The notes beneath the pieces were generated by a model, which searched no databases, was not told the origin of the DNA, and saw only the letters and a program-made list of their open reading frames with translations. From the IMG/VR virus record IMGVR_UViG_2703718771_000014: 18,288 bases of DNA; one strand, written 5' to 3'. The position numbers and the translations under genes are program-made. Source of the stretch: a virus. Its lineage: Duplodnaviria; Heunggongvirae; Uroviricota; Caudoviricetes. Below, piece after piece: positions 1,553 to 16,441 of the stretch; position 1 is the first letter of the stretch; every line of letters starts with the position of its first letter.

Positions 1553-1753
1553 TCACGAGGACTGAAGTTGCTCGCAATTAAAATTTATCAGTTTTACTTT
1601 CTGCTCTCTGGAAACGCCTGCTTCTTTTTTACCTGAGAGCATTTTTTCGCATTCTGATTTGGTTAATTTTGTTTTTGAGTACCTTGTCCAGTTAGTAGGA
1701 GTGCCACCTTCCTTTTCAATAGTGGCGGTAATTTTATACATGAACACCTCCAT
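1553..1753 (-). CDS. Small phage protein, YdaC-like; start ambiguous (ATG at 1813, 1753 or 1741)
   Basis: Track ORF 1553..1813. A GGAGG lies 5 nt upstream of the ATG at 1741 and overlaps the 3' end of ralR. The position between xis and ralR matches the Rac gene order. Confidence 0.55.
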   Translation of the reverse strand: MEVFMYKITATIEKEGGTPTNWTRYSKTKLTKSECEKMLSGKKEAGVSREQKVKLINFNCEQLQSS

Positions 1754-1928: not shown

Positions 1929-1991
1929 TGTCTTTTCTCTCATAAAATAAAATTTTGTGATGGCGGTGAGGCTACACCGCCAAAGTCAATA

Positions 1992-3044
1992 TCAGGAGCC
2001 GATATATTCTGGTTTCATATCTGTCAGTGTCGTTTTATACGCCTCATATAATTCACCCAGATGTGGCCGGGCAGCATTCAGCGTATTTTCCAGAGCAGTA
2101 AATTTTTGTTCTGCTTCTGGATCACCTGAAGAAGGTAGGTCATTTATCATCTTCTCGATACGGGCAATAGCATTGAGACGGTGATGACGCTGAACCACTT
2201 TTCCTTTAAGTTCCGTATAGAGAGCGCCAAGTGTATTTTTATGATCTTCCACTTCCTGGCGAAGTGCTGTTGTTTCCCCGGTGCTTTGTGCCTGCTCAAT
2301 ACGTTCACGGAAAGCATCGATCCAGTTTTCCCCGGCATCCTGCTCAATAATTGTTGTTTCACGTTCCGCGCGGCAAGCGGAAGTGTTTTTATGTTCCTGA
2401 ACCGGATTAATGATTTTTTCCTGTGGCTCGTCCAGTTCGTCCCTGGTGTACACTCCAAGAATCACTTCGGGGCAATAAAGGCGCGCCCAGCGTTTCAGCG
2501 CTAGATAGGCAAGCTGCTGGCGAGGATCGTCGGCCCATAGCGTTGAGTTACGTGTTCTGGCCTGCGCCAGAAGTAATTCCAGTACGCGTGGTTTACTTTC
2601 GCCGCGTAGTGTTGCCTGGACACGAACACCGATCCCGTTTTCATCGGCCAGCTTCCAGCCAGGTACACGATATTCTTTCCCTTTGTCGCTCTTCCTGATT
2701 TCAAATTTCCCGATAATTTTTTCCCACGGCCCGAACCAGTCATATTCAATACGCCCGGTTAGCGGCCCACGAGTACTGATTACGGCATTAACCAGTTGCG
2801 CTTCATATCCGAGCACACCATTCACAACGAAAGTTTTCTGAGCTACTGCGTAAGGGTTCATTTGCCACTGCATCGCCTGCATGGTGATGGCCATGCAGTC
2901 TGATGGATTTCCTCGGAGGTGTTCCGGTACAGTAGCCATGCCGGAAGCCATTACCTGGGAAAATGTCTGAATTGCAGCCATGGACTGAGGGCTGAAAACC
3001 GCAACATTAGAGTTAATATTTTCTTGTTGAGTTAATTCGTTCAT
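1992..3044 (-). CDS. Putative single-strand annealing protein, divergent RecT-like, 350 aa, with a predicted C-terminal coiled coil
   Basis: ORF with an AGGAAGG SD. It lies 11 nt downstream of the recE stop, in the slot recT occupies in K-12. The sequence differs from K-12 RecT as I recall it, but the core motif layout (LW..DP..Q..A.KRWAR..P versus RecT PW..HWEEMAKKTAIRRLFKYLP) suggests the same family. Confidence 0.6.
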   Translation of the reverse strand: MNELTQQENINSNVAVFSPQSMAAIQTFSQVMASGMATVPEHLRGNPSDCMAITMQAMQWQMNPYAVAQKTFVVNGVLGYEAQLVNAVISTRGPLTGRIEYDWFGPWEKIIGKFEIRKSDKGKEYRVPGWKLADENGIGVRVQATLRGESKPRVLELLLAQARTRNSTLWADDPRQQLAYLALKRWARLYCPEVILGVYTRDELDEPQEKIINPVQEHKNTSACRAERETTIIEQDAGENWIDAFRERIEQAQSTGETTALRQEVEDHKNTLGALYTELKGKVVQRHHRLNAIARIEKMINDLPSSGDPEAEQKFTALENTLNAARPHLGELYEAYKTTLTDMKPEYIGS

Positions 3045-3055
3045 TGTGTCCTTCC

Positions 3056-6000
3056 TCAGATGCTCAGTGCTTCAAGACGACGAAGATCAAAGTCGTTTAA
3101 TTCGTCGGTATAACTTTCGGTAATCGGTGCTGGCCAGTTGTTTGTCTCCAGGGCTTCGTTTATCTGGCGTAGCGTCCGGCGATATTCCTGTCGACCAAGT
3201 TCCAGGAGTTCCTGCGAGGCTTCCACGACTGCCACCCAGTGATAGCCAGCATCTTTGTTGACGAAGATCCAGAAAAATTTGTCCAGGTTTGCCACATCGC
3301 AATACATTGCGGCGCTGAGGTGATAATCACGCTCAATAATTTCACGGTGCAGGCGATCTTTAAGTCGTTCCTGTCGCACATAACCGAGGCTGACTGACTT
3401 CACGTCAGCGCAAATGCTTTCGTATGGCAGCCGGATTTCGATATCAGGACGGACCCTGATTTCCAGCCCGGTTTCTTCATCAAACCCGAAATAGCTGATT
3501 TCAGATTTGCGATCCGGGTGGTTGAGTAGCCTTGCTGCATCGGTATTGTTTTGCAGTGCCGCGTGAATATTTTTTGCCTGTTCATACATCTCCGGACTGA
3601 TAAACGTTTTCCCGGCATTTTCTTCTTGCTGGCGTTTTTGCCAGTCCTCCAGTGTCACCAGTTCCGGGCGAATTTTCCGTGCGATTTCGGTTAATTGCTC
3701 TTTTGTGCCACTGATGTTGTAAGGCAAAGATTTAGCACGTTCTTTTTTTGCCAGTTCTGGGTCTACAGTTTCAATTTGATCCAGAAGCTGCTCCCGTGCT
3801 CCACTGGTTTTCAACAGAGGAGGGAGGCTTGCGTTGTATTCTTTAATACAGGCTTTCATTGCTGATGCTGTGTGTTTTTCCCCCTCAGGAATACGCCGAA
3901 ATTCCACCGGAAGCGAACCGTAAAGGATGCCTGTTTCTTCGGCCCCGGCACTTACAGACAGTGGCTGTATAAGAGTGCTGTTGTAGCTTTCGATCCACTC
4001 TTTCATCTGCTCTGGTGTCATCAGTGCTGGCAGACTGGCATTGTGTTTTTTAATGATGGCGATCAGTTCGCTAGAAGTAGTAACCACATATTCAGGAACC
4101 GGTACCGGAATGGCATATTCATCAGCGAATTTATCCGTTTCCAGAACATAGCTGTGAATGATCCGCCCACGCAGCAGTGCATCACTTTCCTCGTTCGGAA
4201 TAGTTCCGGCAATGTGCCGTCCGTGGTAATACATCAGGCTGATACGGGCATCCTTCAGCATCGTGCTGCTTATTCCGTTGGCGGAGTGATAAACCTCGTT
4301 CGGGAGGTTTTCATAGCGGCCAGGCTCGAAATATGACGGCCACATGATTTCAGTTGCTACAGGAGCTGACGCTTCACCAGTTTCATCACTGCAATCACGA
4401 TGCGGATCGCTGCCAGCATTCTCATTGTGCGGATGTTCAGCGCCTTCCATTTCCTCCGGATCATTTTCCTTAGCTTCAACCTGATTCTCTTCATCGAATG
4501 TTTCCTGGTATGTTGCGTCGCCCATCACCGCACCACAGTCAGGGCAGTTATCCCCGCCAGTCTGACCGCAGGCATTGCAGACTATTTCCGGTTTCTGTTG
4601 CACTACTGGCTCAGGTTGTTTCACATCCGGGCTGGTTTTTACAGTTTCTGGCGTGTTTTGTTTCGTTTCTGGCTGGTTCTGGTACACAGAGTCGCGAGTC
4701 TGGATCCCCTTTACCCATTTCGGATCGTTCGGGTCGCTAATTCCGTCAACAAATTCACCACGTGATGCAGCAAGCAATTTATCGGCATCGACAGGATTTT
4801 TTGATGGAATGTTTTTCCGGGCTTCATGGAGTTCTGCCCGCAGTTTCTGATATTTCGCATCAACAGAATTTACCTGTGACTGAGCATCCAGCGGCTGCGT
4901 GTCCTGATGATGTTCAGTTGCATCCGGTTCCACTGTTTCAGCCGTTGCCTGTTTATCTGCCATTGCGCAAGATGGTTGCGGTTTTTCTTCACCATCGTGT
5001 TTTCCTTCTTCTGTTACACGCTGCGGCATTGGGGCAGAGGAACGACCGCAGGCAATATCCACGATTTCCGGATCAGGGTTGGCATGATCGGTTTCAATCA
5101 GCACCTTGTTCAGATATTCAGTGACATGCGCAGGGATAACCTCGATCCCAATTGGTGCTTCTTTTACGGACGCAACCACGATGGCGCGGGAATAATCCAG
5201 CCCGCCAGGCATGGTGATGAATTTGTCGCGGAAAACAGAAAAGGGCGGTTTATTTTCAGAGATAATTTCCTCGACACGTTTAGCGTGTGCCGGATGAAGG
5301 TTATAAATGTCCACGTCCATTGAACGGGCCAGGACGCCAGTGGCTACGTCGCGCGCCAGTGACGTCAGATCGTGAACGAAACCTTCGCCGCGATCGGTGA
5401 GGTTCCCGCCGCCAGCATTAGCGCCGGAAGCCGTGCGCGTGATGCGTGAAACACGATTTCCTTTCATCCACTCTTTTGTCAGCAGACCACGATCGGTGTA
5501 GTCTGCGTCCAGGTATGCTTCGAAAAAAGCAGTCATCAGCCCCAGGCTTGAATTGCCTGGATTAGGGAAAACTCTGTCAGTATCACGCACCAGTTTGTGG
5601 AGATCGCGAATTTCCAGCGGGTCGAGCAGGCTGGTTTTGTGGGAAACAGCCAGGGCAGTAACAGCTGGTAGTTCTTCAGCTCGTGCAATGTGTAATGCCT
5701 GGAGTTCGTCGCGTGAAACGTGCGTTACCGGTTTTTCGCTGCCGTGTTGAGCAAGCCAGCGAATGGGCAGCTCCTGACCGGAAATCGGGAGTAGCATATT
5801 CTCCTCAATCTCCGTCATGTCTTCGCCATTAACATTGGTATTGTCAGTGCTGGCTGGTTTGTCCTGCGCAGAGGATGAGGGCGCGATAAATACCATTGTG
5901 ATGCCATCTTCCCCGCCTTTTTTGTAACGGTTGCAGAATTCCGTATCAAATACGCCCTCTGGTGGAAGGTCATCAACAACGGGCAAATTGACGCGAACAG

Positions 6001-6181
6001 GTTTTTTAAAGTCATCTTCATCGTAGCCAGCATCGTCAATCGCAACAGCACCACGGGATATGGCAATGGATAATTTTTTCGCTTCAGCCCAGTAGAAACC
6101 GCCTTTAATACCGAGACGTTTTCTTACTTTGTCATTTTTTGCTTCGTAATACAGTGGGTAAACTTGTTTATCGGTGCTCAT
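3056..6181 (-). CDS. recE: Exodeoxyribonuclease VIII (RecE), 1041 aa
   Basis: Track ORF. From about residue 110 onward ([38 protein letters not shown]...) it is nearly identical to K-12 RecE as I recall it, including the [16 protein letters not shown] segment and the C-terminal nuclease domain. The N-terminus is longer and divergent. Confidence 0.93.
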
Positions 6182-6252
6182 TGTTTTTTTAACCTCAACT
6201 TAGATTAAAATTACTGCGAGTGATGAATAAATGTCCCAGGTTCTTCACTCAG

Positions 6253-6284
6253 GCCTGCACAGTGTGCAGGCTTTCTTTTTTTTC
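6253..6284 (+). terminator. Plus-strand intrinsic terminator-like hairpin between racC and recE (antisense to the operon)
   Basis: GCCTGCACA-G-TGTGCAGGC stem followed by TTTCTTTTTTTT on the plus strand. On the minus strand the hairpin is not followed by a U tract. Confidence 0.45.
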
Positions 6285-6311
6285 AGATTTCACCCTTTGA
6301 TTTCATTGCAA

Positions 6312-6557
6312 TCAGAGTTGCCAGAAATTCGGCTTTTTTTCTGCGGGCAGATTCTTTCCGATATGCACCAGGCACATTTTTTTGACGCCTTCGTTAAGTG
6401 TTTTAACGTTGCCTGATGGACCGTCGATATCAACCACAGTGAAAGGGGTTTCTTTATTTTCTGTTTTAATCACGTAGCCAATACGCTTTCCTTCCAGGCT
6501 GACTTCGTGAACAATGTCATCAGTAGTAACAACAGTGGCTTCATAACTGGTAATCAT
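6312..6557 (-). CDS. racC: RacC, small Rac prophage protein
   Basis: The ATG at 6557 is preceded by AAGGAG. The translation MITSYEATVVTTDDIVHEVSLEGKRIGYVIKTENK... matches my recollection of K-12 RacC. The track ORF extends upstream to 6605. Confidence 0.8.
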   Translation of the reverse strand: MITSYEATVVTTDDIVHEVSLEGKRIGYVIKTENKETPFTVVDIDGPSGNVKTLNEGVKKMCLVHIGKNLPAEKKPNFWQL

Positions 6558-6631
6558 GTTTTTCTCCTTAATTAAGGTTGAGCGAATCCCTGCCATTGCT
6601 GGCATAAATTCAGTTTCGGATAGTCAGTTAA

Positions 6632-6802
6632 TTAAAGTTCGTGTGCCATCTGGTCTTTTTCGGCACAGATTTCACTACAATATTTTTTCATTTCCGTCGT
6701 TGGTATAACTCCACGCATGAAATGAAGTGGTCTTGTAATGATTTTGCTTTCTTCAATTTCTTTATTGCAAAGGTGATAAGCACATTTTATTTTCTTAGTC
6801 AT
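6632..6802 (-). CDS. ydaE: YdaE, small Cys-rich metal-binding protein, 56 aa (below the track cut-off; translated by hand)
   Basis: Hand translation gives [56 protein letters not shown]. Its ATG overlaps the kilR stop by 1 nt (TAATG). It matches my recollection of K-12 YdaE. Confidence 0.75.
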   Translation of the reverse strand: MTKKIKCAYHLCNKEIEESKIITRPLHFMRGVIPTTEMKKYCSEICAEKDQMAHEL

Positions 6803-7023
6803 TACCATGACTCCGCCTTTACAGGTAAACCATCACGACCGAGGAAGACTCTAATCATGCAGTCAGAAATGCATGTTTTTGTAGTCAGGCTACGAATATA
6901 AAGTTTTCGCTTTTTAATATTGTTTGCCGAGGCGATATATGTCCGACCTTCATGAAGAACATAATCGCCAGGGGTCACACACTGACGTGGTATTTCATCA
7001 GTTCCGAAGTGATGAGCAATCAT
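6802..7023 (-). CDS. kilR: KilR, FtsZ-targeting cell-division inhibitor, 73 aa
   Basis: The ATG at 7023 gives [40 protein letters not shown]..., matching my recollection of K-12 KilR. The track ORF starts 4 codons upstream. Confidence 0.85.
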
Positions 7024-7592
7024 AATTATCTCCATTTTTACAAATGAATTTTGTCGATGCGGTGCCTGGTGCCTCCAGGTGACGTTAACCAGTTAACAAT
7101 TAACGCCGGATACAGAGAATCCACCCATAACACTGTTTTTGGTTTTAACTGTTCCGCGTGCGCTTAGCCGCATTCACCGCATCACAAAATTCACTTTAAA
7201 AAGGGCGGCAGAGCAGCCACGGAGTAAAACTGATACCGCCAAACGTCACCAGAAAATTGATAACAGAGGGCGTTGCAGCGGGGTTGTCACTTAAGCGTAT
7301 GGTCAACCTGACAACCCGGTGTCCTCAATGGGGAAGGAATAACCCCGCCATACTTACCGCCGCGCCATTTCGCGGAGTGCCACAACCGGAAGCGCACGTT
7401 CGAAGAAATCTAACGACAAGCCTTCTGAGGGAAAGAGCTTCGCCGTACGCTTTCGCGTTATGCCCTGACTTTTCAGGGAAATATCCTTTCAGTAAACTGT
7501 CAGTACCGGATTCTTATCCGTGTCCGGCGCACGACCACACGTGACAGCGTGTTGGTCTCCATTTTTAACCCAGAACCTCAATGGAGGATAAA

Positions 7593-13771: not shown

Positions 13772-14016
13772 ATTCATTACGATATGGGAATTCCCATATC
13801 GGGTAAAAACGGTTTGCGGTAAAGCGAGAGTTAAGTAGAATTGCTGCGGGTGCTTGAGGCTATCTGCCTCGGGCATGAACACCAACGGCAGATAGAGAAA
13901 AGCCCCAGTTAACATTACGCGTCCGGCAAGACGCTTAACATTAATCTGAGGCCATATCTATGCTCTACACACGTAGGTTAGCCTCTTACGTGCCGAAAGG
14001 CAAGGAGAAGCAGGCT

Positions 14017-14172
14017 ATGAAGCAGCAAAAGGCGATGCTAATCGCCCTGATCGTCATCTGTTTAACCGTCATTGTGACGGCACTGGTAACGAGGAAAGAC
14101 CTCTGCGAGGTACGAATCCGAACCGGCCAGACGGAGGTCGCTGTCTTCACAGCTTACGAACCTGAGGAGTAA
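14017..14172 (+). CDS. hokD: Hok/Gef-family type I toxin (HokD/RelF), 51 aa
   Basis: AGGAG lies 8 nt upstream of the ATG. The translation MKQQKAMLIALIVICLTVIVTALVTRKDLCEVRIRTGQTEVAVFTAYEPEE matches my recollection of K-12 HokD. The track ORF begins at an in-frame ATG at 13960. Confidence 0.9.
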   Translation: MKQQKAMLIALIVICLTVIVTALVTRKDLCEVRIRTGQTEVAVFTAYEPEE

Positions 14173-16171: not shown

Positions 16172-16197
16172 CTCAATCTGTTATCCGGGGCTATATT
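16168..16197 (+). promoter_or_regulatory. Late promoter candidate (PR'-like): TTGACT-18-TATATT
   Basis: TTGACT at 16168..16173 overlaps the Q-like stop codon. TATATT at 16192..16197. A hairpin (CGCCAG-caaaat-CTGGCG) lies just downstream. Confidence 0.6.
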
Positions 16198-16258
16198 CCT
16201 CACGCGCCAGCAAAATCTGGCGTCGGGATTGGAACCCCGGATAGAGACCGCGACAGAC

Positions 16259-16280
16259 ACACGCCGCGAGCGTGTTTTTT
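16259..16280 (+). terminator. Intrinsic terminator (tR'-like) about 70 nt downstream of the late promoter
   Basis: ACACGC-CGCGA-GCGTGT followed by TTTTTT. Confidence 0.7.
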
Positions 16281-16441
16281 ATTGTCGTATGCACGCGCAC
16301 ATCTGAATTATGGTGGGGCGCATGGGGGAGCTGAAAAGCTCGCCGGTCGGTTTCCCGGTAGTTCCAACCCTGTGCGTCTCACCACCCGATGATTGGAACC
16401 TGACGGTGGTGATAGTTTAGAAACCACCAGAGGGCGTCATT

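Follow-up and report, generated by a model that had tools for sequence, protein, structure and literature searches.

The window analyzed here, an 18,288-nt stretch of DNA, carries the recE-recT operon of a Rac-family lambdoid prophage of E. coli integrated beside ttcA, and the question raised by this locus is whether a K-12-like RecE has been paired with an annealase of foreign origin or whether exonuclease and annealase were exchanged together. The initial annotation favored the former, describing a mosaic module with a swapped annealase. Our comparisons indicate that the operon is very probably a Rac-prophage recET in which one block that starts at a hinge near RecE residue 605 and takes in the whole of recT has been replaced by an allele of the Salmonella Gifsy type. 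The resulting RecE would join ~600 N-terminal and central residues of the Rac type to a Gifsy-type PD-(D/E)XK nuclease domain, and the gene downstream of recE would encode the annealase that matches this domain.

Both open reading frames have the positions and lengths first ascribed to them, and Table 1 lists them together with the segments discussed below. The recT gene is co-oriented with recE and starts 11 nt past the recE stop, with a Shine-Dalgarno-like GGAAGGA in the spacer ahead of the recT ATG, and the two genes form one operon with tight coupling. A scan for promoters and terminators returned nothing exceeding shuffled expectation, and no promoter-like site was seen immediately 5' of recE.

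Table 1. Coordinates of the recombination genes, their predicted domains, and the exchanged segment in the window
Feature	Position (nt)	Strand	Remarks
Exchanged cassette, recT and the 3' nuclease-domain portion of recE	1983..4357	.	blastn vs K-12 Rac
recT-family annealase gene	1992..3044	-	350 aa
recE-recT spacer	3045..3055	-	11 nt, GGAAGGACACA, read directly
recE	3056..6181	-	1041 aa, intact ORF, exodeoxyribonuclease VIII family
PD-(D/E)XK 5'-3' exonuclease domain, RecE aa ~606/609-1041, Gifsy type	3056..4357	-	Predicted catalytic domain
All-helical insertion, RecE aa ~690-861, ~174 aa	3599..4114	-	MAFFT, AlphaFold2
RecE central region, aa 113 to ~605-608	4358..5843	-	K-12-like
RecE N-terminal tip, aa 1-112	5844..6181	-	Differs from K-12

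Nucleotide comparison with the Rac prophage of K-12 (blastn) divides this part of the window into segments with and without similarity. Identity is 97.7% over positions 1 to 1982, absent from 1983 to 4357, 93.1% over 4358 to 5843, absent again from 5844 to 6173, and 86.5% from 6174 to 7241, and the megablast matches of recE to K-12 are confined to the 93.1% segment, which encodes the central region of the protein. The replaced block runs from just past the recT stop to RecE codon ~605, with the breakpoint at residue ~585 to 590 of the K-12 protein. Because it reaches this codon, the block includes the complete exonuclease catalytic domain in addition to recT, and its being a single contiguous stretch without K-12 similarity indicates a joint exchange of catalytic domain and annealase. 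The proposal of a swapped-annealase mosaic thus stands with respect to mosaicism and to the different lineage of the annealase, but not with respect to a K-12-like RecE in which the annealase was the sole unit of exchange.

Compared with its K-12 counterpart, RecE reads as a mosaic of three parts. The whole protein matches the NCBIfam equivalog NF007259 (1562.7 bits against a cutoff of 1269), a score probably owed largely to the K-12-like N-terminal and central region, and has Pfam matches to Exonuc_VIII and DUF3799. In the protein alignment, residues 1 to 57 are without similarity to K-12 RecE and residues 58 to 112 are only weakly similar; with the lack of DNA similarity over the same stretch, this agrees with the earlier observation that the first ~100 residues differ from K-12. 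The variant of the N-terminal tip is common to genes named "exonuclease" in other lambdoid prophages, and identity to the sequence used for comparison, an 814-aa exonuclease of strain 116, is 83% over the whole 1-610 alignment. The central region shows ~95% amino acid identity to K-12 RecE, as read by eye from the printed alignment, contains a CxxC-x8-CxxC motif at residues 535 to 549, and closes in an acidic linker (...SDETGE, residues ~592 to 608) that forms the hinge of the mosaic. Near-identity to K-12, which had been attributed to most of RecE, is confined to residues 113 to ~605, or ~48% of the protein.

Beyond the hinge, the nuclease domain (~436 aa) has the RecE-type PD-(D/E)XK fold but is only 29% identical to that of K-12 (80 of 273 aligned positions in MAFFT). 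In the same alignment, H675, D913, D926, and K928 pair with K-12 residues H652, D748, D759, and K761, numbered by counting along the alignment, and are the putative catalytic residues; the available text of a review (PMC11611040) gives the role of His-652 and the PD-DXK consensus, and His-652 is the one residue that it names. The domain finds a closer counterpart in Salmonella: including the insertion described below, it is 52% identical to a "Gifsy-1 prophage RecE" over 98% of the 438-aa query. At one Salmonella locus (L008), the gene downstream of this RecE encodes a RecT-family protein that is 48% identical to the window RecT over residues 10 to 349. Nuclease domain and annealase are linked across genera, and the pair in the window looks cognate rather than mismatched.

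The nuclease domain carries its all-helical insertion in the place of K-12 RecE residues 665 to 698, a 34-residue disordered loop. AlphaFold2 pLDDT is 80 to 93 across the insertion, and its columns are conserved in the alignment with Gifsy-type homologues. Helix-end motifs of the form ..YN(A/S)(S/T)LP.. recur in it, and a self-BLAST found no internal repeat of significance. We considered SAP/HeH-like DNA-binding motifs as an explanation for the "YNASLP...SG(T/A)(K/R)EQL" repeats, but Pfam scans with the whole insertion and with individual repeats gave no such match at E values up to 10, and the idea is retained as no more than speculation. Comparison of the insertion with PDB sequences gave no match, and fold searches with the nuclease model returned nucleases only and did not type the insertion. 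When the insertion alone was used as the query, only RecE fragments from Enterobacterales were matched, and there is thus no evidence of it as a mobile domain. We note that a 469-aa Klebsiella protein (P0208) might represent a stand-alone nuclease domain; a search for the contig encoding it did not find one.

The 350-aa partner is clearly a member of the RecT family by profile: it matches Pfam PF03837 with 147.5 bits (cutoff 24; E = 4.6e-43), with residues 30 to 209 covering positions 2 to 190 of the 198-position profile, and the same model scores 188.9 bits for K-12 RecT and 115.6 bits for lambda Bet. PHROG 561 ("RecT-like ssDNA annealing protein") matches it over its full length (E = 1e-145). 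Direct comparison with K-12 RecT gave nothing significant in BLASTP (best E value of 0.36, over 16 residues) and no match in hhalign (probability of 0.3%), and pairwise and profile comparisons with lambda Bet yielded no usable alignment; the relationship to either protein is therefore visible only through the shared Pfam model. The divergence from K-12 RecT noted at the outset is borne out by these comparisons, and the protein, having neither full-length pairwise similarity nor DNA similarity to canonical RecT, falls outside the K-12 type.

A phmmer search of the annealase against PDB sequences found none. Its AlphaFold2 model lays out a core (residues ~17 to 195), a disordered linker (195 to 237), and a multihelix C-terminal domain (238 to 350, pLDDT ~85), so that the tail, first described as a predicted coiled coil, is modeled as a separate helical domain, which may or may not form a coiled coil. 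Both AlphaFold2 models, of nuclease and annealase, are of moderate confidence (mean pLDDT ~70) and were built from alignments only 15 and 26 sequences deep. The top Foldseek match of the annealase model in the PDB is the N-terminal domain of Redbeta (7UJL; probability 0.96, E = 0.019), at a low TM-score of 0.20/0.37 and with a model pLDDT of ~70.

Of 5426 complete E. coli genomes, 193 have this cassette and 1750 have the K-12-type cassette. Both exact proteins (UniProt A0A9Q6Y3T2 for RecE and A0A9Q6Y3M9 for the annealase) can be found on 1000 or more public contigs, where they carry the correct family names; an identical architecture lies beside ttcA/intR in ML35 and other strains, and the same cassette is found in the sequenced phage record Rac-SA53. 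Pairwise Nei-Gojobori comparison with Rac-SA53 gave dN/dS values of 0.10 to 0.23 in the two segments of the nuclease domain where substitutions occur, with very few substitutions behind these values (dS of 0.03 to 0.06); for the C-terminal domain of RecT the value was 0.29. IS3 interrupts recE in several O145 strains and recE is deleted in at least one strain, which indicates that the module is dispensable to the host, and it may be decaying in some lineages. One copy is frameshifted (L007), while another sequence (H100), considered as a RecT mosaic, is actually a deletion remnant.

It is highly improbable that the locus represents a K-12-like RecE re-paired, by a swap of the annealase alone, with a foreign and noncognate partner in a new combination. 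The identity of the RecE central region to K-12 at both the nucleotide and protein levels and the lack of similarity between the annealase and K-12 RecT would fit such a history, but the nuclease domain is no less foreign than the annealase, and the same nuclease domain and annealase type stand together in the same order in Salmonella. The portion of RecE that is K-12-like is, moreover, the N-terminal region, whose function is given as unknown in the available text of PMC11611040. What also speaks for a swap is the pairing, among Gifsy-type cassettes, of the same nuclease domain (97 to 100% identity) with either of two RecT core alleles sharing 55% identity, and judged from these sequences a reduced form of the idea does hold within such cassettes. 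The RecT C-terminal domain is near-identical despite the two different cores, which, in the tentative wider reading given below, hints at this domain as a determinant of partner specificity.

Several homologues of the window annealase, at 58 to 70% identity, bear the source name "enterohemolysin," which we take to correspond to EHAP1. Taken at face value, the name would make the 350-aa protein a phage-borne hemolysin rather than a DNA annealing protein, a reading to which we give almost no credence in view of the strong RecT-family profile and PHROG matches, the Redbeta N-terminal domain as the best fold match, and the position of the gene directly 3' of, and coupled to, the exonuclease gene; nor was any signal peptide or membrane segment seen when the sequence was read by eye. 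The EHAP1-like proteins are themselves described as a distinct RecT/Redbeta subgroup of E. coli and Salmonella (Iyer, Koonin, and Aravind 2002, as cited in the available text of PMC8093625). The case is somewhat different for the suggestion that the locus is the inert residue of a cryptic prophage, with both genes retained by chance and lacking a working recombination function, since the recET of K-12 Rac is silent unless activated and the IS3 interruptions, the deletion derivatives, the frameshifted copy, and the absence of a promoter-like site immediately upstream of recE all point in this direction. We nevertheless consider it quite improbable, because both reading frames are long and intact with catalytic residues conserved, pairwise dN/dS lies below 0.3, and identical proteins recur widely, with the cassette also present in a phage record.

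Under the preferred reading, in which a Gifsy-type block replaced the corresponding part of a Rac recET, we hypothesize that upon prophage derepression the nuclease domain would act at a double-strand end and resect its 5' strand, as expected from homology. In K-12 RecE, flexible DNA-capture loops occupy the position of the insertion, on the channel rim, and the insertion probably aids in engaging the duplex end, by analogy with the loop role given in the available text of PMC11611040. The annealase, again judging by homology, would be placed on the 3' single strand to pair it with complementary single-stranded DNA. The C-terminal domain of lambda Redbeta contacts the nuclease and/or host SSB, and loading of the window annealase could plausibly proceed through similar contacts of its linker-tethered helical C-terminal domain.

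A wider reading combines these elements with the hint about the RecT C-terminal domain and the proposed role of the insertion. It would treat the ~600-residue N-terminal and central region of RecE as a nuclease-agnostic carrier, to which at least three interchangeable effectors are joined at the hinge; we offer it tentatively and think it rather unlikely as a whole. The effectors may be a K-12-type PD-(D/E)XK domain with K-12 RecT, a Gifsy-type PD-(D/E)XK domain accompanied by an EHAP1-like RecT, and, with no annealase, a DnaQ-like exonuclease whose polarity is the opposite one, 3'-5'. If this reading were true, the insertion would be a DNA-end-handling module that alters substrate preference, for example, toward linear-linear recombination.

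The locus is an unremarkable example of a module type that is known and has been annotated before, and a specialist would find little to be surprised by, as mosaicism of Rec modules, the recET of Gifsy prophages, and nucleases of the DnaQ type in lambdoid phages have already been published. Its value for recombineering is modest and lies in a natural, intact, E. coli-adapted pair far from the K-12 and lambda systems in use. The nuclease domain and annealase were inherited here as one unit, in agreement with the notion that these parts hold partner specificity.

Compared with K-12, the window shares the Rac backbone genes intR, xisR, ralR, racC, and kilR at 86 to 98% nucleotide identity, and its RecE and annealase belong to the same Pfam families as their K-12 counterparts, with the central region, the PD-(D/E)XK fold, and the predicted catalytic residues of RecE in common. 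It differs in the N-terminal 112 residues of RecE, in the sequence of the nuclease domain (K-12 structure, PDB 3H4R), and in the 174-aa helical insertion that stands in place of a short loop. The annealase is 81 aa longer than K-12 RecT and has the helical C-terminal domain, and the two genes are 11 nt apart, whereas recE and recT of K-12 overlap by 8 nt. With lambda Exo/Redbeta the module has in common the two-component plan of a 5'-3' exonuclease and an annealase and, as modeled, the annealase architecture of N-terminal annealing domain, flexible linker, and helical C-terminal domain. The window annealase fits the Pfam model shared by K-12 RecT and lambda Bet while being pairwise unlike either protein, and indirect evidence, namely the source names of its homologues and the published description of the EHAP1-like family, would place it in the EHAP1-like branch of the RecT/Redbeta superfamily.

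A survey of lambdoid Rec modules (Genome Res 2025, PMC12315714) distinguishes, in its available text, four nuclease types, including RecE and DnaQ-like 3'-5' nucleases, and eight annealase sequence types in many combinations, and suggests shuffling of partner-interaction domains; in the same portion of the survey, we did not find a recE-internal breakpoint at the nuclease-domain boundary described. The closest resemblance is to the recET modules of Gifsy-1 and Gifsy-2, which share the nuclease-domain type with the large helical insertion, the RecT with a linker and helical C-terminal domain, and the placement of recE ahead of recT within a lambdoid early-left operon. The E. coli cassette differs from them in its ~50% identity, in being grafted onto a Rac-type RecE N-terminal and central region, and in its location at the Rac attachment site adjoining ttcA. 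It is also known here from sequence, whereas the Gifsy modules have been tested genetically: the Gifsy recET orthologues, when activated by mutation, suppress recombination defects (Lemire et al. 2008, as cited in the available text of PMC3121763 and PMC8496262).

The recE and recT-family genes of the window are separated by an 11-nt spacer that contains, by our reading of the sequence, a Shine-Dalgarno-like GGAAGGA. The genes around them correspond to those of the K-12 Rac prophage of E. coli (intR, xisR, the RalR/RalA toxin-antitoxin locus, racC, ydaE, and kilR), continuing with a repressor/cro-like pair and then ydaT/U/V. The top whole-window match, at 97.2%, is ML35, in which the same 350-aa and 1,041-aa genes adjoin ttcA, the Rac attachment site. 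Several small RNAs also lie in the window, among them RalA, the RalR antitoxin (type I system), which follows shortly after recT on the downstream side, and the antisense sRNA DicF, upstream of recE within the early-left operon.

Features of the recET region and blastn map of the window against K-12 Rac
Feature	Position	Strand	Description
recE	3056-6181	-	ORF, 1,041 aa
recT-like	1992-3044	-	ORF, 350 aa
KQNTPET insertion	4643-4663	-	RecE aa ~507-513
CxxC-x8-CxxC motif	4535-4579	-	RecE aa 535-549
RalA sRNA	1557-1735	+	Rfam RF02694, 215 bits
DicF sRNA	7203-7254	-	Rfam RF00039, 75 bits
sok antitoxin RNA (hok/sok-type locus; one of the two intervals); isrK/C4 antisense RNA cluster with a1b1 targets	13848-14022; 16191-16389	+	above Rfam gathering scores
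Rac-like segment	1-1982		97.7% identical to K-12 Rac
Replaced block	1983-4357		no similarity to K-12 Rac
Rac-like segment	4358-5843		93.1% identical to K-12 Rac
Dissimilar segment	5844-6173		no similarity to K-12 Rac
Rac-like segment	6174-7241		86.5% identical to K-12 Rac

The large replaced block starts shortly past the stop codon of recT and ends inside recE at codon ~605-608, within an acidic linker (the hinge), and therefore recT and the part of recE coding for the nuclease domain were swapped as one piece. The exchanged unit is a nuclease domain plus annealase of the type found in the Salmonella Gifsy prophages. The initial annotation had proposed a mosaic recET module with a swapped annealase; the annealase does differ in lineage from K-12 RecT, but the nuclease domain was swapped along with it. 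The natural breakpoint corresponds to K-12 RecE residue ~585-590, which we take to lie just before the crystallised RecE fragment, starting at about residue 606.

The 1,041-aa protein scores as exodeoxyribonuclease VIII with the NCBI equivalog model (1562.7 bits; cutoff, 1269) and contains the Pfam domains Exonuc_VIII and DUF3799 (PD-(D/E)XK-like). We compared it with the K-12 Rac region at the protein and DNA levels. As the initial annotation had noted, the N terminus is different: in the protein alignment residues 1 to 57 are without a K-12 counterpart and residues 58 to 112 are weakly similar. The further claim that most of RecE is nearly identical to K-12 did not hold, since identity of ~95% (read from the printed alignment) is confined to residues 113 to 603 and collapses from residue ~604 on, the whole catalytic domain being different (80 of 273 aligned positions identical, 29%, in a family-guided alignment). 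Within the central region, the 7-residue insertion KQNTPET relative to K-12 sits in a Pro/Glu/Thr-rich low-complexity stretch, and a zinc-ribbon-like CxxC-x8-CxxC motif lies ~50 residues N-terminal to the hinge; K-12 RecE shares this motif, and the DnaQ-type exonuclease described below has it in substituted form.

Judged by its sequence, the replaced C-terminal domain remains a nuclease of the RecE type. It matches the RecE crystal structure 3H4R (phmmer, E 1.9e-7), and H675, D913, D926, and K928 align with K-12 H652, D748, D759, and K761 (K-12 numbers counted along the alignment); His-652 and the PD-DXK consensus are named for RecE in a review (PMC11611040). An insertion of ~174 residues (aa ~690-861) without a K-12 counterpart occupies the place of K-12 residues 665-698 in the alignment and is confidently predicted by AlphaFold2 to be helical (pLDDT 80-93). 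It had no match to Pfam or PDB sequences, and a homologue search recovered it only in enterobacterial RecE proteins; its position suggests that it may help to engage DNA ends.

The 350-aa protein clearly belongs to Pfam RecT (147.5 bits) and is matched across its whole length by PHROG 561 ("RecT-like ssDNA annealing protein"). Neither BLASTP nor profile comparison gave significant similarity to K-12 RecT, and there was none to lambda Bet, yet all three proteins hit one and the same Pfam model. The initial view of a divergent annealase is thus upheld. Many homologues carry the legacy name "enterohemolysin," which presumably ties them to the EHAP1-like subgroup. This subgroup of the RecT/Redbeta superfamily was reported from E. 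coli and Salmonella (Iyer et al. 2002, cited in PMC8093625). In the AlphaFold2 model, an alpha/beta core (aa ~17-195) is joined by a low-confidence linker (aa 195-237) to a confident multi-helix C-terminal domain (aa 238-350), which corresponds to the previously predicted coiled-coil tail. In the PDB, the core has its top fold match in the N-terminal domain of Redbeta, at a probability of 0.96 but with E 0.019. The model agrees with a recent survey in which RecT C termini form compact or extended helical bundles, proposed to couple to exonuclease or SSB (PMC13490951).

Several observations favour a functional module: both ORFs are intact, both exact proteins occur on at least 1,000 public contigs, and dN/dS is low. 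Pairwise dN/dS against phage Rac-SA53 was 0.10 to 0.23 for the two nuclease-domain segments with substitutions, which were few; the C-terminal domain of RecT gave 0.29. The cassette is present in 193 of 5,426 complete E. coli genomes (159 of them at ≥80% coverage), and the K-12-type recT-plus-nuclease cassette in 1,750. In some strains recE is broken by IS3 insertions, deletions, or frameshifts, and the host can therefore do without the module; several O145 genomes (e.g., NZ_CP035768.1, 1473086-1478588) carry this recE allele split by an IS3-family insertion and annotated as two partial genes. RefSeq names the proteins "RecT family recombinase" and "exodeoxyribonuclease VIII," and Rac-SA53 (KU052037) has the genes annotated as recT and recE. 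A record labelled "Actinobacillus phage vB_Apl-pPE4" (PP818812.1, 793-4274) contains this recT together with the greater part of recE (96.5% nucleotide identity). Such a match would not be expected with a Pasteurellaceae host; the phage may derive from E. coli, or the record may be mislabelled.

Mosaicism goes further, and RecT is itself mosaic. The same nuclease domain (97-100% identity) also occurs with a second RecT allele, in Rac-SA53 and in P0013 of locus L007. Comparison of the window recT with L004:2501-3604 and P0013 (L007:6001-7095) showed that the second allele is only 55% identical in the core (aa 1-195) and 83-99% identical in the C-terminal domain; two RecT cores with one nuclease domain therefore indicate some annealase-core shuffling inside the family. 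An 814-aa prophage "exonuclease" of E. coli strain 116 (L003:2854-5298), compared with window 4350-6181, shares RecE residues 1 to 610 at 83% identity, including the non-K-12 N-terminal tip, and switches at the same hinge to a DnaQ/Rv2179c-like 3'-5' exonuclease domain (PF16473), with no annealase gene adjacent at that locus. This DnaQ-like C-terminal type is present in 4,089 of the 5,426 E. coli genomes, in up to 7 copies. DnaQ-like nucleases and many nuclease/annealase combinations were reported for lambdoid Rec modules in 2025 (PMC12315714).

The closest named relatives of the nuclease domain are Salmonella "Gifsy-1 prophage RecE" proteins, at 52% identity across 98% of a domain length that takes in the insertion. 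On a Salmonella contig, a Gifsy-1-type RecE gene precedes a gene of the RecT family whose product shares 48% identity with the window RecT over its full length, and from this shared order the pair is a conserved unit across genera. The RecE nuclease domain and RecT of the window are most likely cognate and would most likely act by the standard resection-and-annealing mechanism. The module is of value mainly as a candidate alternative pair for recombineering and as a naturally occurring marker of the domain boundary in RecE. [quoted passage not shown] 2008, cited in PMC3121763 and PMC8496262). It is through these Gifsy genes that the family is functionally validated, and the predicted recET module of the window belongs to a kind that is already known and annotated and has been validated genetically.
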